Position numbers and translations under genes: made by a program. DNA of 64,000 nt. It comes from a virus. Below are positions 5,874 to 61,761 of this stretch, one piece after another; the stretch's first letter is position 1; the number at the start of each line of letters is the position of its first letter. The notes beneath the pieces were generated by a model. That model saw nothing but the letters and a program-made list of their open reading frames with translations, was not told the DNA's origin and searched no databases. The stretch is from positions 1 to 64,000 of IMG/VR virus record IMGVR_UViG_3300020054_000866; one strand, written 5' to 3'.

Positions 5874-5880
5874 TGATGCG

Positions 5881-5886: not shown

Positions 5887-6054
5887 CACTAAGAACGCGC
5901 GAAAGTTACGACCGACCCGTACATCTTTAAGTATTTTTCACTCTCAGTAGCCACTCAGCCGAGTAGCTCTCAGATGTACTTATTTGGTGAATGACACCCA
6001 GAAGAATAGACTATAATGATATTTAGAGCTCTACGTCTGAGAGGTGACGCCCAC

Positions 6055-46138: not shown

Positions 46139-47140
46139 ATGTTTATCGTCATCGAAGGCACTGACGCCTCGGGAAAGTCTACTCTTGTAGACGCTGTTGT
46201 CTCTGAACTCACCGGGCAGCGGTCAACTGCCGGCGCGATTCAGTACCACAAGGGCGCGCCGAAAGAGTTCACTCGCAAAGGCGTACTTTCAGAGTACGTA
46301 GAAGACATTCAAGACTTCAACTGGTTCTCAGCGACAGCAGTCGCTGATCGATGGCATTGGGGTGAGGTAACGTATGCTCCGATCAAGCGTCGTCATACTA
46401 ACATTGACGGCTTTGGTCTACTTGGCGTTGCTGGCTGGCGATGGACCGAGATGTTTCTTCGCGCTCGCGGCATTACTCAGTTTTGGCTGTATCAGCCGCT
46501 TGAGATTATTCAGCAAAGAATTAGAGAACGCGGAGACGACTTTGTAGAAGAGCATGAGCTCGAGCATATTTTAAGTCTCTACTCTTATGCGTTCGACAAC
46601 ACCATGTCGTGCATTAAGTTGCAGCCGTCAAACGGCGGATTAGATCAAGTAGCAAACCTGGCGCGTGACGTCATCAGCTACGCTAAGACATTGCAATCTG
46701 AAGTTCAGCATCTAGAAAGATTTACTTGGTACATCGGACCTCCAAAGCCAAAGGCGCTTCTCGTCGGTGACGAAAGAAACGACGAGACTGACACGATGTT
46801 GCCTTTCAAGCCTTCCGGTGCAAATTCAGCAGACTATTTGTTGAACGCCCTACCGTGCGAAACCTGGCGCGACTACGGAATCATAAATTCTGCCGATGTC
46901 TATGGAGAAGACATCATACGACTATATGAAGCTCTTAATCGGCCAAAAGTTATAGCCCTTGGTCGCATGGCAGAAAAGCGTCTTCGTCAATGCTCACTCT
47001 ACGAAAGTCTATACACAGTTCTTCCGCATCCTCAACATGTTAGACGATTTCACTACTCTGATCAAACAGAGTATGGTCGCGCAATTGATAGCTTCGCAAA
47101 CGGAAACACACAGGAGTATGCGTCATGGGTTCTTCGCTGA
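46139..47140 (+). CDS. Thymidylate-kinase-like dNMP kinase fused to a C-terminal uracil-DNA-glycosylase-fold domain
   Basis: FIVIEGTDASGKST P-loop, DRWH and RERGD; C-terminal LLVGD...PF...VIALGRMA...LPHPQ. Confidence 0.75.
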   Translation: MFIVIEGTDASGKSTLVDAVVSELTGQRSTAGAIQYHKGAPKEFTRKGVLSEYVEDIQDFNWFSATAVADRWHWGEVTYAPIKRRHTNIDGFGLLGVAGWRWTEMFLRARGITQFWLYQPLEIIQQRIRERGDDFVEEHELEHILSLYSYAFDNTMSCIKLQPSNGGLDQVANLARDVISYAKTLQSEVQHLERFTWYIGPPKPKALLVGDERNDETDTMLPFKPSGANSADYLLNALPCETWRDYGIINSADVYGEDIIRLYEALNRPKVIALGRMAEKRLRQCSLYESLYTVLPHPQHVRRFHYSDQTEYGRAIDSFANGNTQEYASWVLR

Positions 47141-47997
47141 CAGCAATTCACATCGAAGACGGAGTAAACGGCTACGTTGATCTTGTTCATCACGTGCTTG
47201 AGCACGGCCGCGAGGTGTCCCCACGCGGTGTGAAGACAAGAGAAATTGAAGACGCAACTGTATTCATAGACAACGTGTACGACGCAATGCCGATGGGCGT
47301 TGGTCGAGGTGTCGTCCCGGGCATTGGCGCCGTTGAGGCGTGCCAACTCGTCGCCGGTAGGAGCACGCCACGGACAGTGATTGCTATAGGTCCGCAGTTT
47401 ACGAATTACGCTGAGAACAACGGAGAATTTCACGGAGCGTACGGTCTACGTACAAATGGCCAGTACGCTCACGTTGTAGACAAAATCAAGAGTGACCCAG
47501 ACACGCGGCAAGCAGTCGTGACGATCTGGAACCCTGAGTTTGACAACATGCCACAGAAGCGTGACTACCCATGCACAGTTCTTCATCAGTTTAGAGTTCG
47601 TGACGGCAAACTAAATATGAGTGTCTACATGCGCTCAAACGACGTGTGGCTTGGTGCAGCGTACGACTTTTTCCAGTTCACGCGGGTGCAGTTAGCGATC
47701 TGCTCGATACTTGGAATAGAGCCAGGCACGTATGCGCATCACGTTGGGTCGCTTCACATCTACGAGTCAAATATAGATGCGGTGACTAAGTTGCGTAAGA
47801 CGAGCGCCCCTGTCGACCCAATTCCGTATTTTGCTGGCAACTCGTGGGCAGACGTCGCACTATCTGCGCAGAACTGTCTTCTCGCCGTTGACCCCGAAGC
47901 TTTGCACGTACCGGAGCTAAACGATACAGAGCTCTGGTACGTTAACGCAATGCGCTCCGCTATCGAGAGCAACGAGGCCAAACTCGGAAATGCCTAG
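47125..47997 (+). CDS. Thymidylate-synthase-fold enzyme, probable dCMP hydroxymethylase/methylase
   Basis: GAYG.R, DTRQAV, catalytic PC, RSNDVWLGAAYD (Asp where ThyA has Asn177) and GSLHIY. Confidence 0.8.
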   Translation: MGSSLTAIHIEDGVNGYVDLVHHVLEHGREVSPRGVKTREIEDATVFIDNVYDAMPMGVGRGVVPGIGAVEACQLVAGRSTPRTVIAIGPQFTNYAENNGEFHGAYGLRTNGQYAHVVDKIKSDPDTRQAVVTIWNPEFDNMPQKRDYPCTVLHQFRVRDGKLNMSVYMRSNDVWLGAAYDFFQFTRVQLAICSILGIEPGTYAHHVGSLHIYESNIDAVTKLRKTSAPVDPIPYFAGNSWADVALSAQNCLLAVDPEALHVPELNDTELWYVNAMRSAIESNEAKLGNA

Positions 47998-48202
47998 TGA
48001 TGAAAACGAAGAAGCTTTTGAGTATGCGTCTCCGATGCATGCCGCAGCGATTGGCATGCACGAGATGTACATCACGCTGAAGTCTGCCGGGTTTTCAAGA
48101 ACTGAAGCTCTCGAGTTGATAGCAAGAATGCTTTCATACGGAGTCACAGAGACTCTAATAATTGAGAGCGAGCTTGGTGACGATGACGACGACGACGACT
48201 AA
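47990..48202 (+). CDS. Small acidic hypothetical protein
   Basis: HEMY..L..AGFS..EAL.L pattern; poly-Asp tail. Confidence 0.6.
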   Translation: MPSDENEEAFEYASPMHAAAIGMHEMYITLKSAGFSRTEALELIARMLSYGVTETLIIESELGDDDDDDD

Positions 48203-48671
48203 CGCGCGGCCATCGTGGCAGTCGACATGGCTCACCGTTGCGACTGTTATTTCGCTGCGCTCACGGTGCTCAAGAGCGCAGATGGGCGCAGTTGTAGTGT
48301 CAAAAGACCAGCGTGTCTGCGCCACCGGCTATAACGGGCCGTCGGCGTCGTGGCCTGAAAGCGGCGACTGTATCGACTGGTGCCCAAGAGCGCGCGGCGA
48401 GTCACCACTAGACAACATCTATGACCAGTGCCCGTCAATTCACGCTGAAGCAAACGCGCTGCTGTACGTAGACAGATCAAGCGTTGAAGGCGGAACAATA
48501 TACATCACAAGTCCGCCGTGTATGCAGTGCGCAAAGCTAATTACAAATTCCGGGTTGTTGCACGTCGTATGTTATATTGGCGAGCACGACATGCACCGCA
48601 ATCCGTTGGATGTCGTCGAGTACATTAAAAAGTGTGGAATAAGCGTTACGCTTGTCGCGCACTCGGAGTGA
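48183..48671 (+). CDS. dCMP deaminase
   Basis: RSRC.R..GAV, TGYNG, HAEANA and PCMQC. Confidence 0.9.
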   Translation: MTTTTTNARPSWQSTWLTVATVISLRSRCSRAQMGAVVVSKDQRVCATGYNGPSASWPESGDCIDWCPRARGESPLDNIYDQCPSIHAEANALLYVDRSSVEGGTIYITSPPCMQCAKLITNSGLLHVVCYIGEHDMHRNPLDVVEYIKKCGISVTLVAHSE

Positions 48672-48677
48672 CGTATA

Positions 48678-50495
48678 GTGGCTGATCTTTCTCAAGTACA
48701 ACTTCACCTTGTCAACAGCGTAGAGTCTGCGAATGACTTTCTTTCGTGGCTTAGCGAACGACGGCCACACAACGCCATCGCGATCGACACGGAGACGGGC
48801 GAGATACCTGGAAACCCGAGGCAGCATGCGCTGTCACCGTGGCACGGACGTCTTCGGCTAGTTCAGGTCGGTGATGGCATGCAGGGCTGGTCAATACCGT
48901 GGGACGAATGGTCGGGAGTGTTCTACCAGGCGATGGAGCGCTTTGACGGTCCGATCGTCTGCCACAACATCGCGTTCGAGGCACGCTGGTTTGAGACTCA
49001 GTCACGCTGGAAAATGCCATGGCATCGCGCGCATGACACGATGATTATGGCTCACATTGTCGACCCGCTTGGTTCAGGCGCACTGAAGCGTCTTGCCGCG
49101 CTGCACGTCGACGCGCGTGCAGTTGCATTACAAGACACTCTTGATCAAGAGCTATCAGCCAACGGTTGGACCTGGGGAACTGTTCCCACAAACTTTGAGC
49201 CGTACTGGTCGTATGGCGCGCTCGACTGCGTTCTTACAATGCGTCTCTGGGAAATGTTCTACGAAAAGTGCGGACCTAACGGCGCGTACCACAAACCGTA
49301 TGAGCTCGAGATGGCGACTCGTAAGATCGTCACGAGAATGGAGATCAACGGCGCTCGAGTTGATCTTGACTACTCGCAGAGAAAGTACAACGAGCTTAGC
49401 TCATACACCGAGTCTGTAAAGAACTGGGCTAAGAATACGTACAACGGAACTTCTATAACGAGCAACATACAACTTGTTCGGCTGTTTGAGAGTCTTGGCG
49501 CTGAGATCACTGAGTTTACTCCGACCGGTCAGAAGTCTTGCACAAAGGATCAATTGAGGCTGCTAGCACAGAGCCCGATAGCGGAGGTCGCTAATCTCGC
49601 GGACACTGTTCTCAAGCAGCGTAAGGCCGACAAACTTGCTGGAACGTACTTTCTAAACTTTCTCACTGAGTCAATTGACGGCATTGTTCACCCGTCTGTG
49701 AAGACTCTTGGCGCTCGAACGAGCAGAATGTCGATCACAAATCCGGCGCTACAGACATTGCCGAAAGGCGATGACGTTGTTCGCCGAGCGTTCATCCCAA
49801 AAGACGATGACCACGTGATTATCACTTCTGACCTCGACCAGGTTGAGTTCAGAATGTTCGCGTCTCTATCTAAAGATCCAAATCTAATTACGCTGTTCAA
49901 CAGGGCGGACGCAACTGGCTCTGACCCGTTCACGGAGATTGGCAGAGAGATCTACAACGATCCGACGATGCAGAAGTCCGATAAGCGCCGCGCGCTGATT
50001 AAAGGCACGGTGTACGGAAGACTCTATGGCGCCGGTGTCGCGAAGCAAGCCGTAACTGCCGGCGTTCCTGAGCCACAGATGCGACAAGTTTCTGATGCAT
50101 TTGATCGCAGATTTCCGGGCATGTCGTACTTTCAAAAGCAGATCGAGGACGCCGGCATGCGAAGGTTGCAGAGCGAGGGCCAAGGCTACGTATATACGTG
50201 GACAGGAAGAAGACTGCCGTGCGACGAAGACAGAGTTTACACGCTTGTGAACTACCTCATTCAGGGTGGAGCGGCAGAGGTCTTCAAAGCAAATCTTGTC
50301 AAACTCGATCAAGCCGATTTGACTGAACTTCTCATCGTCCCGGTTCACGACGAAATAGTTCTACAGGCGCCACGAAAAGACGCAGACGAGATCAAGCAGA
50401 TAGTGAAGCAATGCATGACCACGTCTGACGGCTGGGATGTGCCACTGACCGCTGACGTAGACGGCCCGCTAGAGACGTGGGGCGACAAGTACTAG
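48678..50495 (+). CDS. polA: Family A DNA polymerase with a 3'-5' exonuclease domain
   Basis: Exo motifs DTET / HN..FE / YGALD; motif A DLDQVEFR, motif B R...KGTVYGRLYG and motif C VHDE. Confidence 0.93.
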   Translation: MADLSQVQLHLVNSVESANDFLSWLSERRPHNAIAIDTETGEIPGNPRQHALSPWHGRLRLVQVGDGMQGWSIPWDEWSGVFYQAMERFDGPIVCHNIAFEARWFETQSRWKMPWHRAHDTMIMAHIVDPLGSGALKRLAALHVDARAVALQDTLDQELSANGWTWGTVPTNFEPYWSYGALDCVLTMRLWEMFYEKCGPNGAYHKPYELEMATRKIVTRMEINGARVDLDYSQRKYNELSSYTESVKNWAKNTYNGTSITSNIQLVRLFESLGAEITEFTPTGQKSCTKDQLRLLAQSPIAEVANLADTVLKQRKADKLAGTYFLNFLTESIDGIVHPSVKTLGARTSRMSITNPALQTLPKGDDVVRRAFIPKDDDHVIITSDLDQVEFRMFASLSKDPNLITLFNRADATGSDPFTEIGREIYNDPTMQKSDKRRALIKGTVYGRLYGAGVAKQAVTAGVPEPQMRQVSDAFDRRFPGMSYFQKQIEDAGMRRLQSEGQGYVYTWTGRRLPCDEDRVYTLVNYLIQGGAAEVFKANLVKLDQADLTELLIVPVHDEIVLQAPRKDADEIKQIVKQCMTTSDGWDVPLTADVDGPLETWGDKY

Positions 50496-50812
50496 TGAAT
50501 AGGTACATGGAAAAAGCGATAGAGCTCGCTCACAGCAGCAAGTGCAGGCACAAGCACGGGTGCGTTGTAGTCAAAAACGGAAAGATCATTTCAAAAGCCA
50601 CAAACAAAAAAGTCGGAGACCCGTCCGTGGAGTTTCGTCTCGCGCTTCACGCGGAGTTTGCGGCTGTTGTAGCGGCAGGAACGCACGCCGCGGGTTCAAC
50701 AGTCTATGTAGCCAGAGTCCAAGCAGACGGCTCGACTGCGCTGTCTAAGCCTTGTAAGAAGTGTGAAAATATGATGAAAAGATCTGGAGTATCTAAGGTA
50801 GTGTGGACATGA
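50495..50812 (+). CDS. Second cytidine/dCMP-deaminase-family protein
   Basis: HGCVVVKNG.II, HAE and SKPCKKC. Confidence 0.8.
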   Translation: MNRYMEKAIELAHSSKCRHKHGCVVVKNGKIISKATNKKVGDPSVEFRLALHAEFAAVVAAGTHAAGSTVYVARVQADGSTALSKPCKKCENMMKRSGVSKVVWT

Positions 50813-51273
50813 CAATTTATTTGTGCGTCGATCCAGGAAAAATGAGCGGTATAGCCGCCATAAGCTACGACCATCAAGAAGCGCCAGAGCTAGTCGCGTC
50901 AGGCGAGTACGACGCCAGAAACTATCATAAGCCGATCATAGAAACTATTGTAGCGTCTTATTACACTAAGACACCGATCAAGGTGATTTGTGAAAGGTTT
51001 ACGATCAACGCGCAGACTGTTAAGAACTCTCAAGCGCCGTACAGTCTAGAGCAGATCGGAGTTCTCAAGCACTTGATGCTTGTAAATGGGCTTGAACCCG
51101 ACGACATAGTGTTTCAGTCACCGTCAGACGCAAAGAGAATGTTTGACAACAGCGCACTGAAAAAGTTAGACTTTTGGCACAAAGGTGGAGACGGCCATGC
51201 GCTTGACGCGATACGTCACGGTTTGTTGGCAGTCACAAAGGATGGCTGGGTGCCTCGTGCTTTGTTACAATAG
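50809..51273 (+). CDS. RuvC-like Holliday junction resolvase
   Basis: CVDPGK.SG, ICERF, E.IG.L and H..DA.RH. Confidence 0.7.
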   Translation: MTIYLCVDPGKMSGIAAISYDHQEAPELVASGEYDARNYHKPIIETIVASYYTKTPIKVICERFTINAQTVKNSQAPYSLEQIGVLKHLMLVNGLEPDDIVFQSPSDAKRMFDNSALKKLDFWHKGGDGHALDAIRHGLLAVTKDGWVPRALLQ

Positions 51274-51362
51274 ATACTGAAGAAAAAACTTCAACATGTG
51301 CATACTTTGCACTGTAATATGTGATACAGTGATGATTACTCAACGACGACAAGAGGTTTTTA

Positions 51363-53159
51363 GTGGCAGTTCAGGTAGAACTAAGTCAAGACGGCTCCTC
51401 AATTCACATTCATGCTGAGTGGCGATACAAAGAGCTATGTAAGAGCATCCCCGGCGCGTCGTGGGCTGCAAAAGATGGTGTTTGGAAGGTTCCTACAAGT
51501 TGGGCCTCGTGCTTGGCACTGCGATCTGTCTTTCGCGAAGAACTTGAGATCGGTAGCAGACTAACAGACTGGGCAGTCAATGAGCGCACGTCACGAGTAG
51601 ACCCGTGTAATTCACTCCGTGAGCTCGAGGCACTTCCAGACGGCGACGGCTACAATGAAGATCTGTTCCCGCACCAGCGCGCTGGAGTCGAGTTTCTCGC
51701 TGCTGCACGTCGCGCGCTTCTCGCCGATGAGCCGGGGCTAGGAAAAACAGCACAGGCTATTCGAGGATTAAAGAAAATCCAAGATCTCGGTGATGAGGTA
51801 TTCCCGGCTCTCATCGTTTGCCCGAACACCGTCAAGAAAACTTGGAAACGCGAGTTTTCTCTTTGGTGGCCAGAGGTAAACGTTCAGGTTATCGCCGGGT
51901 CTGCGGCTCAGAGACGCAAGCAGTTTGAAGAAGAAGCAGACGTCTACGTGATCAACTGGGAATCTCTTCGAGCGCACTCAAGGCTTGCGCCATACGGGTC
52001 TGTTGCGCTTGCTCGATGCGTTGAGTGCGGGGGTCACGACGACAAAGTCAGTGAGACTCGTTGCGAGGTCCACCAACGTGAGCTAAATCAGATTGATTTC
52101 AAGGCGGTTGTAGCCGACGAGATCCACAGATCGAAGGACCCAAAGAGCAAGCAGACGCGTGCGCTATGGTCTGCGACTGGCGAGGCCGACATTAGATTCG
52201 CGATGACTGGCACTCCAATCGCTAATGACGTTCTTGATTTTTGGCCGATTCTGCATTGGATTTCCCCCGAGGAGTGGCCGAGCAAGACTAGGTGGATCGA
52301 CAGAATGGTCGACATCATGCTCAACGCATTTGGTGGCATGATGGTTCTTGGCGTAAAGCCGCACATGCGCGATGAGTTCTACGCCGCAATCAACCCGAGG
52401 ATGCGTAGGATGCTTAAAGAGCGCGTGCTCCCATGGCTCCCGCCCGTAATCATGGACAGACGCGATGTCGAGATGTCGGCTAAGCAACGAAAAGCGTACA
52501 CTCAGATGCAGGAAGTAATGATCGCCGAACTGGAGCACGGCGATGCTATTACTGCGCCAAGTCCGTTGACACAGACACTTCGTCTACTTCAATTTGCAAG
52601 CTCTTTTGCGGAGATAGACGTAGACGAAATGACTGGAGAAATCCAAGTAAAGCTCGCTGAGCCATCGTGCAAGGTCGACGCGTTGATGGACGATATACAG
52701 AACGGAGACTTTGGAGATGACTCAGTTGCCGTCTGCGCTGTTTCTAGGCAGCTAATTGAACTGCTGAGCGCGCGCCTAGAAAAAGCCAAAATTCCTCACG
52801 GGCTAATCACAGGCGCACAGGACGAAGACGAGCGTCAGCAGGCAATTGATGATTTCCAAGAAGGAAGAATCAAGTGGATTCTCTTCACCGCGCAGGCGGG
52901 TGGCGTTGGAGTGACGTTGACTGCTGCTCGGCGGCTTATCATGCTTCAGCGCCCGTGGTCACTTGTCGACTACAAACAGGCACTAGACAGAGTTCATCGC
53001 ATCGGGTCAGAGATTCACGACTCTATTTTGATCACGGACTACGTTACCGAGGGCACTATTGAGGAGAGAGTCATTGACGTGCTGGACGTAAAATCTGAGA
53101 ACTTTGAAGAAGTCGTTCAAGATAAAGCAAAGCTTCTCAAGATGCTAAAGGGAGAGTGA
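51363..53159 (+). CDS. SNF2-family helicase
   Basis: LLADEPGLGKT, DEIH, TGTP, GVGVTLT and QALDRVHRIG. Confidence 0.92.
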   Translation: MAVQVELSQDGSSIHIHAEWRYKELCKSIPGASWAAKDGVWKVPTSWASCLALRSVFREELEIGSRLTDWAVNERTSRVDPCNSLRELEALPDGDGYNEDLFPHQRAGVEFLAAARRALLADEPGLGKTAQAIRGLKKIQDLGDEVFPALIVCPNTVKKTWKREFSLWWPEVNVQVIAGSAAQRRKQFEEEADVYVINWESLRAHSRLAPYGSVALARCVECGGHDDKVSETRCEVHQRELNQIDFKAVVADEIHRSKDPKSKQTRALWSATGEADIRFAMTGTPIANDVLDFWPILHWISPEEWPSKTRWIDRMVDIMLNAFGGMMVLGVKPHMRDEFYAAINPRMRRMLKERVLPWLPPVIMDRRDVEMSAKQRKAYTQMQEVMIAELEHGDAITAPSPLTQTLRLLQFASSFAEIDVDEMTGEIQVKLAEPSCKVDALMDDIQNGDFGDDSVAVCAVSRQLIELLSARLEKAKIPHGLITGAQDEDERQQAIDDFQEGRIKWILFTAQAGGVGVTLTAARRLIMLQRPWSLVDYKQALDRVHRIGSEIHDSILITDYVTEGTIEERVIDVLDVKSENFEEVVQDKAKLLKMLKGE

Positions 53160-53160
53160 C

Positions 53161-54111
53161 ATGACAGTTCTAGAGACTCCGGTAGAAATCAAGCCAATAC
53201 GCATATCCAACTCCGAGATTCAAACGTTTAAAGACTGTAGAAGAAAGTGGTGGCTAAGCTACTATAGAAGACTTCAGCCACGTGCACAAAAATACACTGG
53301 CCCACTGGCGCTCGGCACCAGGGTCCATGCGGCTCTAGACGAGTACTACTCGCAAGGAGTACCGCTTCTTGAGTCGTACGCAAAGTACGTCGAGATCGAC
53401 AAGCAAGCGCTCATTGACTCGTTTAGGGACACAGTTGAACTTGACACTGAAGCCGAACTCGGCAGAATCATGCTTGAGGGCTACCTCGAGTGGGTAGAGG
53501 AAAACGGAATTGACGCAGAACTAGAGATGATCTCGACTGAGGAGATCATCAGCATGCCACTCTTCGATGGCAGAGTCGAGTTGCAGGGAAAACTTGACAT
53601 GCGAGTCCGCAGAAAGGCGGACGGTGTTCGACTGTTTAGAGACTTCAAGACAGTCGGTGGCTCGTTTGCAGAGTTCGCCAGTCTTGCTCACATGAATGAG
53701 CAGATTCTTACGTACATGCTTCTTGAAGCGTATCAGAACAAAGATGGCGAGCGCTGCGACGGTGGCATCTTTACGATGCTCAAGAAGGTGAAAAGAACTG
53801 CTAATGCAAAGCCTCCGTTCTACGATCAGATAGAGGTTCGGCATAATCAGTTTACGCTAAGAACTTTTTGGAATCGCATACACGGAGTAATTCAAGACAT
53901 GCTTCGAGTACGTGACGCTCTTGACGAAGGCTCTGACCCGCACTACGTTGCGTACCCGAGCCCCAGCCGAGATTGCAAGTGGAAATGTCAGTTTTTCGCT
54001 GTGTGCCCGCTGTTTGACGACGGTAGCGCAGCAGAGCAAGCACTTGAGGAGCTTTTCATTACAGATGACCCGTACAGCTATTATCAGACAAATGAGCCGA
54101 AAGGTAACTAA
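53161..54111 (+). CDS. Cas4/RecB-like PD-(D/E)XK exonuclease
   Basis: ISNS....CRRKW, GT.VH, GKLD, DFKT, Q..TY and the C-terminal C...C.....C staple. Confidence 0.88.
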   Translation: MTVLETPVEIKPIRISNSEIQTFKDCRRKWWLSYYRRLQPRAQKYTGPLALGTRVHAALDEYYSQGVPLLESYAKYVEIDKQALIDSFRDTVELDTEAELGRIMLEGYLEWVEENGIDAELEMISTEEIISMPLFDGRVELQGKLDMRVRRKADGVRLFRDFKTVGGSFAEFASLAHMNEQILTYMLLEAYQNKDGERCDGGIFTMLKKVKRTANAKPPFYDQIEVRHNQFTLRTFWNRIHGVIQDMLRVRDALDEGSDPHYVAYPSPSRDCKWKCQFFAVCPLFDDGSAAEQALEELFITDDPYSYYQTNEPKGN

Positions 54112-54114
54112 CAC

Positions 54115-54864
54115 ATGAGTGGTATTCAACGGTCGTTGACCATTATGGTCTACGGCGAGTCAAAGGTCGGAAAGTCGACATTCGCAGTGACAGCACCGTA
54201 CCCGCGTCTCATGCTCGACGTGGAGGGCGGACACAGATTCCTCCCGATCAACGTAAAGTACTGGGACCCGATGCGCGAGGAGCCTCCTGTAGCAGATGGA
54301 AGCTGGGACACGTGCGTTGTCAACGTGACCGAGTACGACACTGTTCTCAAGGCGTACCAGTGGCTGCAGCTCGGTAAGCATCAGTTCAAGTCGCTGATCA
54401 TCGACTCGATCTCAGAGCTCCAGGTAAAGTGCGTCGACAGCATTGCTGGAAAGAATCAAATGCAGATGCAACAGTGGGGCGAGCTTCTTCGTCACATGGG
54501 CGGTCTGCTTCGAGATCTCCGCGATCTTACGATGCACCCAGTCGCGCCTCTGGAGGCGATCGTACTTACCGCGATGGCAAGAATGGGTCAAGACGGTCGC
54601 TATCGTCCGTACCTCCAGGGGCAGCTTGCCATTCAGGCACCGTACTTCTACGACATTCTCGGCGCGGTTACCGTCGAGACATTCCCAAATCCTGACCCAA
54701 CGCAGCCGCCAATCAAGGCGCGTCAAATGTACGTCGAGCGTACTAGCGACTACGAGGCAGGCGAGCGTGTTCAGGGACGACTTGGTAAAGTCGTCGATCA
54801 ACAGAATCTCAGCGTCGAGTCGATGCTGGACATTGTCTTCGGCCCTCGGCCGAGTGAAAGCTAA
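54115..54864 (+). CDS. Sak4-like AAA_24 ATPase (ssDNA annealing recombinase)
   Basis: YGESKVGKST, DVEGG and IIDSISE; lies between a Cas4-like gene and DUF669. Confidence 0.85.
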   Translation: MSGIQRSLTIMVYGESKVGKSTFAVTAPYPRLMLDVEGGHRFLPINVKYWDPMREEPPVADGSWDTCVVNVTEYDTVLKAYQWLQLGKHQFKSLIIDSISELQVKCVDSIAGKNQMQMQQWGELLRHMGGLLRDLRDLTMHPVAPLEAIVLTAMARMGQDGRYRPYLQGQLAIQAPYFYDILGAVTVETFPNPDPTQPPIKARQMYVERTSDYEAGERVQGRLGKVVDQQNLSVESMLDIVFGPRPSES

Positions 54865-54898
54865 CAACAACAACAACACCAAAGGATAGGTGATAGAC

Positions 54899-55495
54899 AT
54901 GACTAGCCTCAACTGGGGTGACCTCATCAGCGAAGCAGGGGATGTTGGCTACGAGCCACTTCCCGACGGCGACTACGATCTCAAGATCGTGGAGGCAAAC
55001 GCCAAGGTGACTCAGACTGGAAAGACGATGTTCGCAGTCAAGGCGCAGGTTACGACTGGCGCCCACGCGAAGCGTCTCGTCTGGGACAATCTCGTCGTTT
55101 CGACCGACAACCCGAACGCTCTCGCGATCTTCTTCAGGAAGATGGGAGCTCTCGGTCTCGGTCGTGACTTCTTCTCAACCAACCCGAGCAACGCTCAGAT
55201 CGAGCAGGCGCTTGTAGATCGCCCGTTCCGCGGGCAGGTTGGCAGCCGCACTTGGCAGGGCCAGAAGAAGAACGAGATCAAGGCGTACTACTCGGCCAAT
55301 CCGGCGAACGCCGTTGCCGCGTCTGCCCCTCCCGCCGCAGCTGCGGCCCCTCCCGCTGCTGCGCCAGCGCCGCCCACGGCGCCGGCTCCGGCTCCGGCCG
55401 CGCCGGTCGCTGCGCCAGAGGCCGCGCCTGTTGCGGAAGCAGCGCCCGCTGCTGCTGAGGCAGCCCCCTCAGCGCCGCCTGCTGCGCCGTTCTGA
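54899..55495 (+). CDS. DUF669-like single-stranded DNA-binding protein
   Basis: YEPLPDGDY...I..A....TGK.M; Ala/Pro-rich tail ending PF. Confidence 0.8.
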   Translation: MTSLNWGDLISEAGDVGYEPLPDGDYDLKIVEANAKVTQTGKTMFAVKAQVTTGAHAKRLVWDNLVVSTDNPNALAIFFRKMGALGLGRDFFSTNPSNAQIEQALVDRPFRGQVGSRTWQGQKKNEIKAYYSANPANAVAASAPPAAAAAPPAAAPAPPTAPAPAPAAPVAAPEAAPVAEAAPAAAEAAPSAPPAAPF

Positions 55496-55508
55496 TAGCT
55501 GTAGGTGA

Positions 55509-55558
55509 GTCGCCCGCTCCGTCTTCAGGGGCGGGCGGCTAGCCTGCAATTTCTTTTC
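55509..55558 (+). terminator. Putative intrinsic terminator
   Basis: gtcgcccgctcc-gtcttca-ggggcgggcggc, with a T-rich tract downstream. Confidence 0.55.
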
Positions 55559-55569
55559 TAAGGACACAA

Positions 55570-56772
55570 ATGCGTATTCTAATGACAGGTTTTACCGCTC
55601 TGCAAATAAACACAGAGCGTAGAACGATCAAGAAGATCGACGTGCCAGCGTCTATTGCCGAAGCACTCGAGTCTCGAGGGCACTCTGTCGACTGGAGAAG
55701 AGTGACTCCCGGGGAAGATCTCTCATCATACGACGTCGCCTGGGTAAACCTTGCGCCGCTAAACTCGCTGAACGGTCGCCAGGGCGCGATGGGTGCGCTG
55801 TACACGCTCTCCTCTGGTCTGCCCGCCGTTGGATTCTTCGATGACTGGCAATTCGCCGCAGTGTTTAACGCGTCACGAGCGTTGAAGCGACATCCAGAGC
55901 TTCTGTATAAGTATCTATTGTCTGGGCCGAGAGGCGATGAGCCGGCGACGTACTACTCGTATGATGACGCGAAGGCAGCACTTGATCGCGTCGCGGCGAA
56001 GAACCCTGAGGACGCAGCGAAATGCGGTCTTGGGCGGTACTTCTTCAATGACACTGACGAGAACATCAAGCTTTACGAAAACCAACTTGTCGCTGCTGGA
56101 GAGTCTATGCTCGCTGAGCGCTGGGCAGCAGGCCTTGTTCCGGCGTGCCCAATGTACGCGTTTGGTGATAGGCAGCTCGTAAGAAAGCGAATGCCTAAGG
56201 AAATGAATGGCATAGAAGCGCTCGACCCGAGCTCGACTATCTATAACATCCTAGCGAGCAGCGAGCCGCTGCCACCGGAGAGCAAGCAGAGATCGTGGGT
56301 TCTCGGCGCGCTGATGCCGCACGATACGTGGCTAGAAAAGAAGAAGCCCGAGTGGCCGGTAGAAATCATCGGAAGCAGAAAGCTTATTAAGAAGTTCGGC
56401 GGGCAGCGTCTTGACACGGAAGAAGACGTTCTAGCGTTCTACAACAATCACTGGGGGATTCTGTCTCCGCCGTATCCACACGCTGGCAGCGGTTGGTGGA
56501 GAAGCAGATTTATGTACGCCGCTCGAGTTAGGTCTATTCTTGTAGTAGATAAAGGCGAAGGCGACCCTATCGGTGACGCGTACAAAATCACAATCAAACA
56601 AGTCGAGAGTATGAGCGACGCTGAGCTCGAGGAAACTGCCAGAGCGCAGGCCGAGTCTCTTCGCCCGTACATGCCAAGCTACGATTCTTTTGTAGATCAC
56701 TGCGAAAGAATTGTTCTTAGGGCGATCAACGAAGACAAAGGTTTGAAGATACACCCAGACGGAAGTAGATGA
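55570..56772 (+). CDS. Putative GT-B-fold (DNA) glycosyltransferase
   Basis: MRILMTGFT, L..RGHSVDW, FFDDWQ and GIL.PPYPHAGSGWWR.R; sits in the nucleotide-modification cluster. Confidence 0.6.
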   Translation: MRILMTGFTALQINTERRTIKKIDVPASIAEALESRGHSVDWRRVTPGEDLSSYDVAWVNLAPLNSLNGRQGAMGALYTLSSGLPAVGFFDDWQFAAVFNASRALKRHPELLYKYLLSGPRGDEPATYYSYDDAKAALDRVAAKNPEDAAKCGLGRYFFNDTDENIKLYENQLVAAGESMLAERWAAGLVPACPMYAFGDRQLVRKRMPKEMNGIEALDPSSTIYNILASSEPLPPESKQRSWVLGALMPHDTWLEKKKPEWPVEIIGSRKLIKKFGGQRLDTEEDVLAFYNNHWGILSPPYPHAGSGWWRSRFMYAARVRSILVVDKGEGDPIGDAYKITIKQVESMSDAELEETARAQAESLRPYMPSYDSFVDHCERIVLRAINEDKGLKIHPDGSR

Positions 56773-57794
56773 TGAAAAACATCGCGGTGACTGGGATGAC
56801 AGCATCTCAGTACTCAAGATCGCGCAATTCATCGTCACTAAGCTTTGTCGCCTGTCTAAGCGACGCTGCTACCATGTATGGAGACGACGTCCGTGTTTCG
56901 TGGATAAAGCCGTCTGTCTCTCACGCGCAAAGCGACTTTGAAGAATACGATGCGATACTTGTCGGTCTTTCTCCTCTTCTAAGTCTTGCTTCTCACTGCG
57001 CGTACGGCGTTCTTAATGTCGTCGGCATGCTAAAGGGCGATCAACGACTGCACTTCTATATTGACGCTCCTGACCCGGCAAAGATACGTCAAAGTCTGAG
57101 CGCGATTGTAAAGACGCCAGAGTCGTTGAAAAAGCCGATCTATAAGAATAGAAACGAGTACTCTAAAGTTTCTGGCTCAAGTGAGATTGTAGACAGGCTC
57201 GCTGAGTCTGCTGAGTATCTGTATTCAGACAAAAACTACAGAGTGCTGTACCCAGCGTTCTCGTTCACAGACGACGTTCACGTATCAAGAAAGTTGTTCG
57301 GGGAGGACTCGCTGAGAATGGTTCCGTTCAACTTCGATGCTCTATACACGAGGCAGGAAGTTGACGCAGTAATTTCAGCGGAGAAAAGCAAGCTATGGCT
57401 TGTAGAAAATCACAAGACGCGCTGGTTTGAGAGAATGAAAAATCTTCTTTCATATGACTGGGAACCGGTCAAAATTAAAAGAATGCAGCCGGACACCGTG
57501 TCACTAGACAGAATTTGCAGATCCACGGGAACAATCATATGCCCGCAAAACGACTCAATTACGTGGTGGACGTACAGATTAGTGCAATCTTTAGCAGCTC
57601 TAGTCCCGGTTTGTACAGAATGGCGAGATACAATCTCTATCGGGCAGTCATGGTCTGCCATACCGCAGGCCGTCGAGTCGATGAGCATAGCGGAGAGATA
57701 CTCTCTAGCATTAGAACAACTGGAGCAATACTCTCTATCTATTAGAGACGCAGAGACAGAGACATCTAGACTATTTAAGGAGCTTTCACTCTAA
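56769..57794 (+). CDS. Divergent paralogue of the preceding glycosyltransferase-like protein
   Basis: Collinear features: NIAVTGMTA.Q, YD.ILV.L.PL.SL...YG.L and TWW.YR; DDW is replaced by DAP. Confidence 0.5.
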   Translation: MMKNIAVTGMTASQYSRSRNSSSLSFVACLSDAATMYGDDVRVSWIKPSVSHAQSDFEEYDAILVGLSPLLSLASHCAYGVLNVVGMLKGDQRLHFYIDAPDPAKIRQSLSAIVKTPESLKKPIYKNRNEYSKVSGSSEIVDRLAESAEYLYSDKNYRVLYPAFSFTDDVHVSRKLFGEDSLRMVPFNFDALYTRQEVDAVISAEKSKLWLVENHKTRWFERMKNLLSYDWEPVKIKRMQPDTVSLDRICRSTGTIICPQNDSITWWTYRLVQSLAALVPVCTEWRDTISIGQSWSAIPQAVESMSIAERYSLALEQLEQYSLSIRDAETETSRLFKELSL

Positions 57795-58267
57795 TGAACA
57801 TTCTATTTAATCAGTGGCTTGAAAAGACAAAGAAGCTTCAATCAGAAGTCTACGGTGTAGATTACTCCGTGTTTCATAGCGACAGCCCAGAAGATCTTCG
57901 AGCGCTTATCGAGTACATCCGCTGGAACATGCTTGCTATTGATGACGAGCTCTCGGAGGTTCGCAAGGCGATTTCTTGGAAGCCTTGGCAGCACGACGAG
58001 CCGTACGCTGATCGCCGCGAGATTCTCAAGGAATGCGTAGACGTTCTTCATTTTGTCGCTAACATTCTCTGCGCCGCTGGTGCACTTGATGAAGATCTTG
58101 ATTCTGAGTACATCGCAAAGATGCAAATCAACGCGAATAGACAGAAGGCCGGGTACAGAGTTCTTGATGACGGCATGAAGTGCAAACTGTGCGCGCGTGC
58201 CTTAGACGACTACGACACCTCCTCGTGTAAGGAAGACGGGTGCCCGCAGCGTCATGGAGTCGTCTGA
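57794..58267 (+). CDS. MazG / dimeric dUTPase-like dNTP pyrophosphatase
   Basis: DELSE.....WKPW, E.VDVLHF and Y..K...N..RQ..GY; C-terminal Cys cluster. Confidence 0.85.
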   Translation: MNILFNQWLEKTKKLQSEVYGVDYSVFHSDSPEDLRALIEYIRWNMLAIDDELSEVRKAISWKPWQHDEPYADRREILKECVDVLHFVANILCAAGALDEDLDSEYIAKMQINANRQKAGYRVLDDGMKCKLCARALDDYDTSSCKEDGCPQRHGVV

Positions 58268-58499
58268 GTTCGCGTGGGTTGATGTTTCAGCCCAGACAAT
58301 CAAGCAAGGTGACGTACTGCGAGTAAAGCTCGATGCGTACACGACTTCTGCTGGAAAAATGCACAACGGGCGGCTAGTTCGAGTAAGAGAAGTAAAAGAC
58401 GGAGACGTAAGAGTACACACTATTGACTTAAAGACACCACATATCAACGACGCGAGGCACGCGCCTCATCGTCTTGAACGGAAGGTAAGCGTTTTATGA
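58254..58499 (+). CDS. Small hypothetical protein (SH3/KOW-like)
   Basis: IKQGDVLRVK.DAY.....HNGR..RV. Confidence 0.55.
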   Translation: MESSEFAWVDVSAQTIKQGDVLRVKLDAYTTSAGKMHNGRLVRVREVKDGDVRVHTIDLKTPHINDARHAPHRLERKVSVL

Positions 58500-58690
58500 G
58501 AGCAATAGTAAGATTTACAGCCGTCGGTAGTGACATCGAAGAGCTGCTATCAAAACTTAGAGAAGAATGGGCGTCGCTGTCAAATGGAAAAGACTTCCCA
58601 AGAGACAGCTCGATTGACATAGACAAGTTAGAAGAAACTGACGAAAAATACAGGGCCGTGTGCACCGCTCGAGTTAATATAGAAACCTGA
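58496..58690 (+). CDS. Hypothetical protein
   Basis: ATGA-coupled ORF within the operon. Confidence 0.55.
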   Translation: MRAIVRFTAVGSDIEELLSKLREEWASLSNGKDFPRDSSIDIDKLEETDEKYRAVCTARVNIET

Positions 58691-58695
58691 GGAAA

Positions 58696-59004
58696 ATGAC
58701 AAAAAAGATTGAAACCACGAGCGAGTCTCCAAGAGAGAAGATGCTTTCGGAGGCAGCAAAAATTATCTCTGGAGAGCGTGATCTTCAGTACGGCGGACCG
58801 GAAGACAATTTCCAAAGAATCGCGTCGCTATGGTCAGTCATTTTTGACAGAGACTTCAGCAAAGAAGATGTCGCAATGGCAATGATCGCAGTAAAACTCG
58901 CGCGATTTTCTTCCAACTACGGATTTCAACCAGACACCTGGACGGACATCGCGGGGTACGCGGCGTGCGGTTACGAGGTCGGGTTGATCGACTCAGGAGA
59001 GTGA
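58696..59004 (+). CDS. DUF6378-like (putative dNTP diphosphohydrolase) protein
   Basis: A..I+.G.R...YG...NF.RIA.LWS...VA..M...KLAR......D.W.DIAGYA. Confidence 0.8.
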   Translation: MTKKIETTSESPREKMLSEAAKIISGERDLQYGGPEDNFQRIASLWSVIFDRDFSKEDVAMAMIAVKLARFSSNYGFQPDTWTDIAGYAACGYEVGLIDSGE

Positions 59005-59005
59005 C

Positions 59006-60253
59006 ATGAGCACGAAAAAGTTTATCGACTGCAACGGCCTCGCTGGCTTCATGAGCCTTGGCTTTGTAAACTCCGGAATGGAGATGCTGGCAAGGACTGG
59101 GACGTTGAACTTCGGTAATCCAGTTGCAGAAGTGAATAGACATCATCTCGGCAACTCGTGGAACTCGTCATTCTCCGATGATCCGAGCGACTGGCCTGAT
59201 ATGGAAGCAGACATTGTTCTCGGCTGCCCGCCGTGCTCTGGATGGTCTCTATGGTCTGGCCCGGCAAACCGCGGGCCTGATGCTAAGGCTCACGAGCATA
59301 CTCGCGCGTTCATGAGATACGCAGCTCGCATCAAGCCGAAGATGATTGTCTTTGAATGTGTGCAGCAAGCGTACACTCAAGGACGACCAATGATGAATCA
59401 GTATCGTCAAATGGTAGAGGATCTCTCAGGCAAGCAGTACGATCTCTATCACGTCAAGCACAACAATCTCCAGGTCGGCGGATTCTCATATCGCATGCGG
59501 TACTTCTGGGTTGCTGTTGAAAAAGGCATGCCGTTTGGCGCTCACGCTGAGACGCCTAGCGAGATGCCTAGAATGATAGACGTAATTGGTGACCTCGAGC
59601 ACTGCGAGATCACGTGGGACCGACAGGCGTACTCCAACGACGGGTCGAAGTACGTTGCCGATCTCAGAAACCAAGACGGTACTGTTGACGGTCACATGAA
59701 CAAGACAAATCTCGAGTCGCAGAGAATTCAAGAAATCTTTGACATCATCGGCAACGATGGTTGGAAGCCGATGAAGCAGATGAACGAGGCTCTTAAGCTC
59801 GCCGTCGAGATGAACGGAGGGTACTTTCCACAGAGCTGGAGCAACAAAGAAGACAAGATTCGCGCCAATGACTTCTACATGGGGTTCTCACTCCCAGCAA
59901 GATGGGACGCTGAATCTTTCTGCCACGTGCTCACCGGTAGCGCGCTCGATCACGTCGTGCACCCAACGCAGCCGAGAAGAATCACTCACAGGGAGGCGGC
60001 AAGAATTCAAGGCCTTCCCGATGATTGGGAAATCGTCGCCGCGAAGGACTACACCCCGCAGAGCGCGACTTGGGGCAAGGCAGTGGCGGTGCAGGCGGCT
60101 AACTGGATCGGAGAGGCCTGCTCAGCGGCCTTAGACGGCCAGCCAAACGGTCCACAGGGTGAATTGATTGGTGATCGCGAATACCTTCTCGACACTGACA
60201 AGGGCTTTAGTAGAAACTTCGTCAAGAAGAACTTCTACCAGCGAGAAGACTAA
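59006..60253 (+). CDS. C5-cytosine DNA methyltransferase-like protein with atypical motifs
   Basis: PPCSGWS (motif IV), FECV (VI), YRMRYF (VIII), ITHREAARIQGLPD.W (IX) and WGKAV (X); motif I is CNGLAG. Confidence 0.8.
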   Translation: MSTKKFIDCNGLAGFMSLGFVNSGMEMLARTGTLNFGNPVAEVNRHHLGNSWNSSFSDDPSDWPDMEADIVLGCPPCSGWSLWSGPANRGPDAKAHEHTRAFMRYAARIKPKMIVFECVQQAYTQGRPMMNQYRQMVEDLSGKQYDLYHVKHNNLQVGGFSYRMRYFWVAVEKGMPFGAHAETPSEMPRMIDVIGDLEHCEITWDRQAYSNDGSKYVADLRNQDGTVDGHMNKTNLESQRIQEIFDIIGNDGWKPMKQMNEALKLAVEMNGGYFPQSWSNKEDKIRANDFYMGFSLPARWDAESFCHVLTGSALDHVVHPTQPRRITHREAARIQGLPDDWEIVAAKDYTPQSATWGKAVAVQAANWIGEACSAALDGQPNGPQGELIGDREYLLDTDKGFSRNFVKKNFYQRED

Positions 60254-60324
60254 GTCGTTCTAAAGAAAGCGCCATTTGATATAGTGGCGGCAGACAGTAG
60301 CTGTCAACTAATACGGAGCGACGC

Positions 60325-60837
60325 ATGCAATCATTTCTAGTCTCGACTGACTCGTTTGAGACAACAGCAAAAGTACTAGACAACAAGCGCCTGCATAAGC
60401 AGACTCTTGAGGCATGGCAGTGCTTGCTAACAATCTCTGGCCTAGACCCAGAGGGCAACGACCGAAACCCTAAGGGCTGGGTGAATCACCCAGTTGTAAA
60501 AATGTGGCGCGGCTACGAGACAGTGTTTGTCTCATACATCTCGGCTACGTACTTCGAGTGGCGATCGCGCGGGTACAAATCAACTCTTCTTGAGAAAACG
60601 TACAGAACGTACGATCTAGCAGTCTCACTAGGCCGTGTCTCTTCCGAGTATCGACTCCCACCATGGATGCAAGACTCTACGTACTTTAGCAGCCTATGTT
60701 CTACTCATCGGACCGCACTCCTGTGCAAGAACTACGAGTGGTACCATCAGTTCGGCTGGCCAGAGGACTCGGGGACTGCACCAGAGACGTACGAGTACTT
60801 GTGGCCTCATCAAGACGGCTACGTCATCGCCGGCTAA
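60325..60837 (+). CDS. MSMEG_6728-family / pyrimidine-dimer DNA glycosylase (DenV-like)
   Basis: MQ.FL......TA.VLD.KRL.KQ.LEA.Q, W.NHP.VKMW.G and H+..L..K...Y......Y.WP. Confidence 0.85.
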   Translation: MQSFLVSTDSFETTAKVLDNKRLHKQTLEAWQCLLTISGLDPEGNDRNPKGWVNHPVVKMWRGYETVFVSYISATYFEWRSRGYKSTLLEKTYRTYDLAVSLGRVSSEYRLPPWMQDSTYFSSLCSTHRTALLCKNYEWYHQFGWPEDSGTAPETYEYLWPHQDGYVIAG

Positions 60838-60923: not shown

Positions 60924-61265
60924 ATGAATGATTCACGCCCGGGCGAGACTCTATGGTCTGAGTGGTTAGGTGAAGACTACTCTTTATTCTCGAGCGGCGG
61001 AATTGTCTACTACACTATCGAGCACGTGGACATCGAGAATGAAGTTGTAAAGCGCGCTTTGGCATCGTCTCTTCAAAGAGATGGAGTAGCTCTCTCCTTA
61101 GGTGAAGGCTACAAATTTGTCGAGTCAGGTGTGCCGACACATGGATACGTCGGATACACAGACGGAGACGACGAGCCAACAGTTTGCGATTCCGACGGAG
61201 AGACATACTACGGTGACGAAATCGACGAGGTGCTAGAAGCTACCTGGGTCGAAATCGATGCCTAG
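60924..61265 (+). CDS. Acidic hypothetical protein (leaderless: TAGAAT 8 nt upstream)
   Basis: ORF overlaps the whiB start. Confidence 0.6.
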   Translation: MNDSRPGETLWSEWLGEDYSLFSSGGIVYYTIEHVDIENEVVKRALASSLQRDGVALSLGEGYKFVESGVPTHGYVGYTDGDDEPTVCDSDGETYYGDEIDEVLEATWVEIDA

Positions 61266-61761
61266 CGGTCTAAGTAGATTCGACTGGCAAGACAACGCAG
61301 AGTGTAAGAAGCCAGAGAATAAGCATCTTGCCCCCAACTTCTTTTCTGCCGAGCTCAGGGACAGATACGACGCTAAGAATCTTTGCTACTCGTGTCCCGT
61401 AAGAAAAGACTGCCTCAAGTACGCTCTTGAAGAAAAAGAACTTTGGGGCGTGTGGGGTGGCAAGGACGAGTCTGAAATACGAAGAGCGTTGTCAGTTTCT
61501 CACGAGGGCAAGGAAATACGACGAACAAGATTCCCGAATTGCCCATATTGCGGAGCCCGTCCGGTCAAGCTTCAAGTTCTTGTGCGCCCATCACCTGAAG
61601 GCGGACGTTGGCCGACAATGCGATTAGTAAATTGCACAGAGTGCGACTTCACCTGGAGAAGTAGAACAAGCGCAAACGCTGTAAGCGCATATCATTCAGC
61701 GCGAGAGAAGTCTAAAAAGAAGGCCGAGTCTTCAAAAAAGAGAAAGCCTAAGAAGACGTAA
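61258..61761 (+). CDS. whiB: WhiB-family regulator with an extra C-terminal zinc ribbon
   Basis: WQ..AEC...AK.LC.SCPVR..CL..AL...WGVWGG, then CPYC...CTEC and a basic tail. Confidence 0.88.
   Translation: MPSGLSRFDWQDNAECKKPENKHLAPNFFSAELRDRYDAKNLCYSCPVRKDCLKYALEEKELWGVWGGKDESEIRRALSVSHEGKEIRRTRFPNCPYCGARPVKLQVLVRPSPEGGRWPTMRLVNCTECDFTWRSRTSANAVSAYHSAREKSKKKAESSKKRKPKKT

Follow-up and report, generated by a model that had tools for sequence, protein, structure and literature searches.

A probable T-even-type pathway for replacing cytosine by glycosylated 5-hydroxymethylcytosine in a freshwater actinobacteriophage

We examined positions 1 to 64,000 of IMG/VR virus record IMGVR_UViG_3300020054_000866 (the window, 64,000 nucleotides at full length) and, within it, the genes between positions 46,139 and 60,837. 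We consider it probable that these genes form the module for replication and nucleotide metabolism in an actinobacteriophage from fresh water, with a genome of at least 110 kb, and that they encode a T-even-type replacement of cytosine by glycosylated 5-hydroxymethylcytosine (5hmC). The reading centres on a ThyA-fold enzyme of the dCMP type, which is accompanied by a kinase, a homologue of the T4 dCTPase gp56 and GT-B glycosyltransferases that are nearest to T4 BGT. An initial annotation, made from the letters alone, had described this company of genes, and all the features it listed are present on the + strand at the positions given below, as judged by Pfam, PHROG or structural-model matches. 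Its proposal that cytosine is replaced before replication and then glycosylated remains the best reading, given the dCMP-type enzyme, the gene set and the absence of TET. The accompanying claim that the pathway as a whole is new is not supported: clusters of ThyS with BGT-like GT-B genes represent the T4 paradigm and are already common in metagenome mining (bioRxiv 10.1101/2023.12.21.572611). The core pathway follows the T-even type, with cytosine replaced ahead of replication, and we do not call it new because Pyle et al. already found BGT-like GT-B enzymes mainly with thymidylate synthase homologues; for GT-B hits in metagenomes they report an association of about 28% with such homologues versus about 10% with 5mYOX (bioRxiv 10.1101/2023.12.21.572611). 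The host group is new, and the gene set includes a distinct GT-B family, a kinase fused to a uracil-DNA glycosylase (UDG) fold and a conserved methylase-fold enzyme.

For comparison, 80 related IMG/VR loci were fetched, which are close relatives at 65-71% identity, and occurrences were counted in a phage collection of 50,697 records. The whole module is syntenic in all 16 related loci of at least 15 kb, and the synteny extends to the genomes of the cultured phages Sixama (Gordonia) and Kurnik (Micrococcus). The genes that bear on the finding all lie on the + strand within a replication and recombination module, and are named hereafter by their first coordinate:

46139-47140 (+): deoxynucleoside monophosphate (dNMP) kinase (residues 1-190) fused to a UDG-superfamily fold domain (residues about 191-327); phrog_761 thymidylate kinase, 5.6e-14, and AlphaFold2 (AF2) model
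47125-47997 (+): ThyA-fold enzyme with the signature of a 5-hydroxymethyl-dCMP (5hm-dCMP) synthase, or dCMP hydroxymethylase; Pfam PF00303 Thymidylat_synt, E 4e-27
48162-48671 (+): dCMP deaminase, analogue of T4 cd; PF00383 dCMP_cyt_deam_1, 2.6e-17
48678-50495 (+): family A DNA polymerase with 3'-5' exonuclease; DNA_pol_A, 2e-54, and exo1, 2e-5
50477-50812 (+): small deaminase of the cytidine deaminase (CDA) fold, 111 residues; PF00383, 1.6e-13
55570-56772 (+): GT1, BGT-like GT-B glycosyltransferase; AF2 model, Foldseek and VIA
56769-57794 (+): GT2, divergent paralogue of GT1; hhalign against the GT1 family profile, 99.3%, E 1e-20, 306 columns
57794-58267 (+): MazG/dUTPase_2-family NTP pyrophosphatase, predicted dCTPase/dUTPase (T4 gp56 analogue); PF08761, 2.6e-11
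58696-59004 (+): DUF6378 protein; PF19905, 1.4e-26
59006-60253 (+): C5-cytosine methyltransferase-fold enzyme with a rebuilt cofactor pocket; PF00145 DNA_methylase, 8e-23
60325-60837 (+): DenV-like pyrimidine-dimer DNA glycosylase; PF03013 Pyr_excise, 6.7e-15

The dCMP-type ThyA-fold enzyme

Residue equivalences for the 47125 product were taken from alignments made with HMMER, against solved thymidylate synthases and the CMP hydroxymethylase MilA, and with MAFFT, against T4 gp42. Cys150 aligns with the catalytic Cys146 of E. coli ThyA. Residues 170-181, RSNDVWLGAAYD (nt 47632-47667), end in an Asp that falls on E. coli Asn177 in the HMMER alignment to solved ThyA; this Asp181 bears out the dCMP type originally assigned to the enzyme, since the change from Asn177 to Asp selects dCMP (Lee et al., PMC13326640). 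Asp147, in the motif DYPC, occupies the position of E. coli Leu143 (the T4 counterpart reads SDFMC), and Asp173, in the motif RSND, that of E. coli Asp169, where T4 gp42 likewise has RSND. An acidic residue in place of Leu143 admits water and goes with hydroxymethyl rather than methyl products, and replacement of Asp169 by Asn is the mark of the flavin-dependent 5-hydroxy-dCMP (5ho-dCMP) synthases (PMC13326640). As a control, RB69 gp48, a proven 5ho-dCMP synthase, showed RSQN at the Asp169 position in the same alignment. Judged by its residues, the 47125 product shows the complete signature of a 5hm-dCMP synthase and not that of a 5ho-dCMP synthase, because Asp169 is kept as in gp42, unlike in RB69 gp48. 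The initial annotation had left the product as hydroxymethyl-, methyl- or hydroxy-dCMP; the Asp at Leu143 and the kept Asp169 favour the hydroxymethyl product, and neither the methyl nor the hydroxy alternative, the latter requiring Asn at Asp169, is upheld.

The enzyme is not a canonical ThyA either: its score falls below every NCBIfam ThyA equivalog cut-off (best 81 bits versus a cut-off of 108), and the Asn177 and Leu143 positions are both Asp. All 18 related IMG/VR loci that were compared have an identical signature, which was also found in Actinomycetia phage DSL-LC01, in the Gordonia phages Sixama and Phendrix, in the Micrococcus phage Kurnik and in a Manatee Spring siphovirus. The Kurnik homologue (record 50958-51296) is 54% identical to T4 gp42 over the aligned part, far closer than to the other actinophage enzymes, a hint that T4-like phages and actinophages have exchanged genes.

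Glycosyltransferases, pool enzymes and the methylase look-alike

GT1 has no Pfam, NCBIfam or annotated PHROG match. An AF2 model built from 136 family members reached a predicted local distance difference test score (pLDDT) of 97.5 and a predicted template modelling score (pTM) of 0.94. The top Foldseek match of this model is T4 BGT (1QKJ, E 2.6e-7), and VIA-align gave a Z-score of 19.3 to T4 BGT (root mean square deviation 4.0, 306 of 351 residues), such that BGT ranked first in both searches; VIA Z-scores were 17.2 to the selenosugar synthase SenB and 16.9 to T4 AGT. On this predicted model, the GT-B fold that had been proposed for the gene holds, and for GT2 the relationship rests on the GT1 family profile. 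The GT1 family comprises 601 representatives at 50% identity, in which D92-W93 is nearly invariant and R311 and R313 are invariant. GT2, which has no Pfam match, is further linked to GT1 through the two DSL-LC01 paralogues. It departs from the family at these positions: DDWQ is changed to DAPD, with loss of Asp92-Trp93, and WWRxR to WWTYR, with loss of Arg311. GT2 also evolves much faster, with about 35% identity among relatives versus 68% for GT1, and it is rare: 5.8 billion proteins yielded only 2 clusters at 90% identity. Its donor or acceptor may differ from that of GT1, or the protein may be a partner without catalytic activity.

The distribution of the GT1 family provides further evidence on its role. 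Members occur in 41 records of the phage collection, which belong to Gordonia phages, DSL-LC01, Manatee Spring siphoviruses and T4-like phages of Aeromonas, Stenotrophomonas and Providencia. All five of the GT1-family records that were checked carry a ThyA homologue with the 5-hydroxymethyl signature. In Aeromonas phage 25, a gp42-type enzyme is present and no match to PF09198 or PF11440 was found, with T4 as positive control. Some family members are fusions (proteins P0270, P0167, P0161 and P0178), the partners being C5-DNA-methylase, dUTPase_2 and class I S-adenosylmethionine (SAM) methyltransferase domains. P0167 carries the dUTPase_2 domain, and P0270 carries a C5-methylase domain with Arg at motif X; the latter protein was not found among the viral or metagenome contigs searched. 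In two unrelated lineages the immediate neighbour of the GT1-family gene encodes a UDP-galactopyranose mutase, at 24963-26060 in DSL-LC01 and at 4896-5960 in Aeromonas phage 25. Because the mutase adjoins the glycosyltransferase, this suggests that galactofuranose is the donor and that DNA is galactofuranosylated in these two phages. Taken together, this evidence, which is indirect but comes from several directions, suggests modified cytosine in DNA as the target of the GT1 family, and GT1 is a predicted DNA 5hmC glycosyltransferase.

The genes around these enzymes would supply the modified nucleotide. In BLASTP, the 57794 product matched T4 gp56 with an E-value of 3e-10 (26% identity over 136 residues), and gp56 itself matches PF08761, which places both proteins in the same family. 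The 48162 deaminase is kept in 22 related loci as well as in DSL-LC01, Phendrix and Kurnik. From their sequences, the pool enzymes and the polymerase appear to follow T-even logic, in which dCTP is destroyed and dCMP is hydroxymethylated, phosphorylated and incorporated. Neither an Asn-type ThyA nor ThyX is encoded, and the supply of dTMP therefore presumably relies on synthesis by the host.

The 46139 product was modelled with AF2 at a pLDDT of 82.9. Its kinase domain gave a Z-score of 17.3 to the YorR-like structure 2AXP and of about 14 to thymidylate kinases, and is predicted to phosphorylate 5hm-dCMP. The second domain (residues 189-327; nt 46691-47137) has the UDG fold: Foldseek matched it to 1UI1 and 1VK2 at a probability of 1.00, and Z-scores were 11.2 to UdgX, 11.0 to the Thermotoga maritima UDG (1L9G) and 10.7 to the UDG domain of phiLo PolA (9QHS; 22% identity over 125 aligned residues). 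Two of its motifs, LLVGD (nt 46757-46774) and HPQ (nt 47021-47035), do not vary among relatives. Motif A has Asp instead of Glu (LLVGD), and the match to PF03167 is below threshold (14.8 bits versus a cut-off of 24.3, E 0.032). The polymerase UDG domain of phiLo has the motifs LLVGE and LNHP (PMC13697223), which LLVGD and HP resemble, and the type IV-like UDG domain of 46139 is in this respect like those of the family A polymerase-UDG fusions of SP15-like and SPO1-like phages (PMC13697223). In contrast to those fusions, the partner of the UDG domain here is a dNMP kinase instead of the polymerase, and cytosine rather than thymine is the base that this phage is predicted to modify. The kinase-UDG fusion is specific to the freshwater lineage, because the kinase of the Gordonia phages lacks the UDG domain. 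A Kurnik gene annotated as AAA ATPase was compared as a possible kinase homologue and was not homologous.

Three further genes of the module had been drawn into the pathway by the initial annotation, and fared differently. Both deaminases it named are present, but the small one could not be kept as a pathway part: tblastn found no match to it in any of the 80 related loci, and it is an accessory gene rather than a conserved component. This gene is wedged between the polymerase gene and a RuvC-like gene and overlaps both. The DUF6378 assignment was correct and the gene, present in 58 related loci, is conserved within the module; its description as a pyrophosphatase was rejected, as the searches revealed no similarity to the MazG-like open reading frame (ORF) or to any solved structure. 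Finally, DenV is a common UV-repair gene. It serves ordinary UV repair in this phage as well and stands outside the modification pathway in which it had been included.

The product of 59006 is related to C5-cytosine methyltransferases, with an unusual pattern of kept and replaced motifs. Its PF00145 match begins only at profile position 54, and it scores 48.8 bits against the NCBIfam model dcm, versus a cut-off of 100.65. Motifs were read from HMMER alignments to M.HaeIII and plant MET1-type enzymes. The Pro-Cys of motif IV is kept (PPC, Cys77, in the context CPPC), as are the Glu of motif VI (E117, with ENV changed to ECV), the RxR of motif VIII (RMR, 163-165) and motif IX (RRITHREAARIQGLPDDW). 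The cofactor motifs are altered: the canonical FxGxG of motif I reads NGLAG, the acidic residue of motif II is a Gly within RTGTLNFG, the Asp of motif III is a Ser, and GN in motif X has become GK (Lys358, nt 60077-60079), giving GKAV versus the GNAV of HaeIII and MET1-type enzymes. The same replacements are kept in relatives at 60-65% identity, and gp120 of Gordonia phage Sixama, at 35% identity, reads NGLAG, RTGSLNLG and GKGV. Because the same changes persist across the relatives and Sixama, this comparison indicates that they are not decay. The most economical statement that the motifs permit is that the enzyme would still activate C6/C5 of a flipped cytosine-type base without canonical SAM binding.

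This methylase look-alike is also narrowly distributed. Its clade was found in only 15 of the 50,697 phage records (DSL-LC01, 13 Gordonia records and Micrococcus phage Kurnik), and the order glycosyltransferase, MazG, methylase holds in every clade record examined for gene order. The four clade records that were checked (DSL-LC01, Sixama, Phendrix and Kurnik) all carry a ThyA homologue of the 5-hydroxymethyl type. Among the best 120 protein homologues of the look-alike, and likewise among the best 120 of GT1, only the same lineage is represented, and a protein atlas search with the look-alike returned generic viral C5-methylase clusters only. A hypothetical protein of 415 residues beside the Manatee Spring hydroxymethylase was considered and is not a methylase homologue. 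The suggestion, made at the outset, that the C5-methyltransferase homologue provides extra chemistry is strengthened by this conservation and co-occurrence, and the enzyme is best regarded as a candidate. It is conceivable, if on balance doubtful, that it is a new kind of DNA-modifying enzyme whose Cys would attack C6 of 5hmC or of residual cytosine without SAM, yielding an undescribed cytosine hypermodification. This could happen by either of two possible routes: the hydroxyl might be swapped for another nucleophile through an exocyclic methylene intermediate, or a one-carbon unit might be taken from a non-SAM donor.

The proposed pathway and competing explanations

The pathway that we propose would run as follows. 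The MazG/dUTPase_2 protein would hydrolyse dCTP (and dUTP) to the monophosphate, and the ThyA-fold enzyme would hydroxymethylate C5 of dCMP with methylene-tetrahydrofolate as the donor. The fused kinase would then make 5hm-dCDP and the host NDP kinase 5hm-dCTP, which the family A polymerase would incorporate. After replication, GT1 would transfer a sugar from a nucleotide sugar onto the hydroxymethyl group, and GT2 would add or vary a second sugar or act as a non-catalytic partner. The 48162 dCMP deaminase would feed dUMP to the host thymidylate synthase. The methylase look-alike would belong to the module as well, most likely attacking C6 of cytosine or 5hmC in DNA without canonical use of SAM.

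Several points weigh against this pathway. The evidence consists of folds, residue signatures, synteny and co-occurrence, and every substrate and product is assigned through homology. The rules for Leu143 and Asp169 are correlations from a limited set of characterised enzymes. GT1 stands outside the sequence families of T4 BGT and AGT: it matches neither PF09198 nor PF11440, and no PF09198 match was found anywhere in the record (T4 positive control 1e-99). The counterpart of the catalytic base BGT Asp100 could not be placed in GT1. GT2, for its part, is without the family-invariant residues and may be inactive, and no nucleotide-sugar gene is present in this record. If C5 is substituted everywhere, a C5-methylase fold has no obvious substrate. 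There is also palindrome avoidance in the record: GGCC, its most avoided 4-base palindrome, is under-represented (301 observed versus 477 expected, ratio 0.63, z -8.1), and CTGCAG was observed 4 times versus 19 expected (ratio 0.21). Such avoidance would be unexpected if all cytosines were shielded from type II enzymes; this is a weak objection, since palindrome avoidance can have other causes.

The last point is accommodated by an explanation that we judge unlikely, namely that the ThyA-fold enzyme makes 5-methyl-dCMP as in Xp12, or replaces cytosine only in part, that the GT-B enzymes act on non-DNA targets such as virion proteins or the host envelope, and that the methylase is an ordinary SAM-dependent enzyme working on the remaining cytosines. 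GGCC avoidance would fit incomplete protection, glycosyltransferases for non-DNA targets are frequent in actinophages (this phage has a separate family 8 glycosyltransferase (GT8) gene at 8708-9544), and the methylase passes the Pfam threshold with motifs IV, VI, VIII and IX intact. However, the acidic residue at Leu143 correlates with hydroxymethyl and not methyl products, and the best matches of GT1 are the T4 DNA glucosyltransferases. Its family, moreover, tracks the 5-hydroxymethyl type of ThyA homologue across unrelated lineages, and some of its members are fusions with DNA-methylase or dUTPase_2 domains. As for the methylase, the residues that contact the adenosine of SAM (the Phe of motif I, the acidic residue of motif II and the Asp of motif III) are all replaced, and the replacements are conserved. 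The same loss bears on an explanation that we regard as improbable in the extreme, in which the look-alike is a DNA cytosine carboxymethyltransferase of the CmoX type that uses carboxy-SAM, with Lys358 in the role of Arg350 of SpCmoX. Arg350, at motif X of SpCmoX, binds the carboxymethyl group of carboxy-SAM (PMC12783734). The likeness to the CmoX/CmoA/CmoY system lies in a C5-methylase fold whose motif X Asn has given way to a basic residue: Lys in 59006 and in Sixama, Arg in the related methylase domain of P0270. Yet SpCmoX keeps the canonical adenosine contacts Phe25, Glu47 and Asp69 (PMC12783734), whose equivalents in 59006 are Asn, Gly and Ser, and the basic residue here is Lys, not Arg. 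The look-alike also has CPPC instead of SPPC, no ligase accompanies it, and C5 would already be occupied if replacement by 5hmC is complete. No CmoA (TIGR00740) was found in the record, which is 82% complete; one actinobacterial control genome was also without a match above the cut-off. CmoX-type carboxymethylation is disfavoured by the missing adenosine contacts and the lack of CmoA.

Two further explanations concern the base that is made. The ThyA-fold enzyme might be a flavin-dependent 5-hydroxy-dCMP synthase like RB69 gp48 or DLP3 gp80, with the glycosyltransferases joining a sugar to 5-hydroxycytosine (5hoC) by an ether link. The arabinosyl-5-hydroxycytosine pathway of RB69 and DLP3 (PMC13326640) indeed combines a ThyA homologue, a kinase and DNA glycosyltransferases, and the 5hoC synthases share both the Asn177-to-Asp change and the acidic residue at Leu143 (PMC13326640). 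Galactofuranose-type chemistry has moreover been proposed for the 5hoC phage RL38JI (PMC13326640), and UDP-galactopyranose mutase adjoins the glycosyltransferase in relatives. We nevertheless find this explanation very unlikely: the Asp169-to-Asn change of the 5ho-dCMP synthases is absent, with RSND in the window enzyme and in all 18 relatives versus RSQN in RB69 gp48, and no arabinose-nucleotide genes are present here. The kept Asp169 led us to reject a 5-hydroxy-dCMP synthase. It seems hardly credible, finally, that a phage deaminase turns 5hm-dCMP into 5hm-dUMP and that the modified, glycosylated base replaces thymine. The two CDA-fold deaminases, the lack of an encoded Asn-type ThyA or ThyX and the resemblance of the UDG-fold domain to that of polymerases from phages with thymine-modified genomes would fit such a route; the gp56-like dCTPase and the T4-like gene set, in contrast, fit cytosine replacement. 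The small deaminase, besides, is missing from all relatives, and among the genes scanned neither a 5-hydroxymethyluracil (5hmU) DNA kinase nor any other thymidine-hypermodification gene was seen.

Replacement of cytosine by glycosylated 5hmC, which we prefer, most resembles the T-even pathway (T4 gp42, gp1, gp56, cd and AGT/BGT). The likeness comprises the three signature residues of gp42, a dNMP kinase, a gp56 homologue, a dCMP deaminase and two enzymes like the GT-B DNA glycosyltransferases, with BGT and AGT among the best solved matches of GT1. The system differs from that of T-even phages in its actinobacterial host, in siphovirus-type tail genes (annotated as such in DSL-LC01) and in its family A polymerase. 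Its glycosyltransferases form a separate sequence family, its kinase is thymidylate-kinase-like and fused to a UDG fold, neither td nor ThyX is present, and a C5-methylase-fold enzyme with a rebuilt pocket has been added. BGT-like GT-B enzymes are also shared with the clusters of methyltransferase, 5mYOX/TET and glycosyltransferase genes and with the ThyS-associated contigs described from metagenomes (bioRxiv 10.1101/2023.12.21.572611). In contrast to the former, no dioxygenase is present here: the initial annotation had found no TET/JBP in the window, and our search of the entire 109,822-base record (rated 82% complete) likewise revealed no Tet_JBP, ThyX or second ThyA-family gene. The 59006 product is unlikely to be the 5-methylcytosine writer of such a cluster because the canonical SAM motifs are missing.

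If the proposed pathway is correct, full replacement and glycosylation of cytosine would extend to phages of Actinobacteria, among them an abundant freshwater lineage with hundreds of metagenomic relatives and cultured phages of Gordonia and Micrococcus. In those cultured phages the genes are now annotated as thymidylate synthase, hypothetical protein or methyltransferase, and this mislabelling by pipelines will continue. The GT-B family of GT1, large (601 clusters at 50% identity) and so far unannotated, would then consist of DNA glycosyltransferases, which would explain how T4-like Aeromonas phages without alpha-gt and beta-gt could sugar-coat 5hmC. The methylase-fold enzyme with its remodelled cofactor site is a concrete candidate for new DNA chemistry. 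DNA of this kind is resistant to restriction enzymes, and sequencing may under-represent or mis-call it. Because the module recurs in cultured Gordonia and Micrococcus phages, the pathway is testable directly there.

Genomic setting and other genes of the record

The window is the first 64 kb of the 109,822-base IMG/VR record, whose completeness is rated at 82%. The nearest named record is that of DSL-LC01, metagenome-assembled from a lake; part of the stretch aligns to it at 73% nucleotide identity, and the two agree in gene order. A WhiB gene at 61258-61761 and the relatives point to an actinobacterial host. Besides the family A polymerase, the replication module encodes a RuvC-like protein, an SNF2 helicase, a PD-(D/E)XK nuclease, AAA_24 and DUF669. 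The literature check, which covered these actinophages with the DSL-LC01 genome paper left outside, found no report of 5hmC or hypermodified DNA in them.

Beyond the window, the record holds a single ORF of 5,188 residues (record 80977-96543, - strand), flanked by large leftward ORFs of 1,375, 1,153 and 677 residues. A Pfam scan of nine leftward ORFs from 62199 to 79949, which did not include the 5,188-residue ORF, gave no match. Further genes were recognised in the left part of the window:

2737-4788 (-): class II (B12) ribonucleotide reductase
5073-5873 (-): Fpg/Nei-type DNA glycosylase
8708-9544 (-): family 8 glycosyltransferase (GT8)
10517-13138 (-): PrimPol-D5 helicase

The phage carries three DNA glycosylase folds, namely the Fpg/Nei-type enzyme, DenV and the UDG domain of the kinase fusion.

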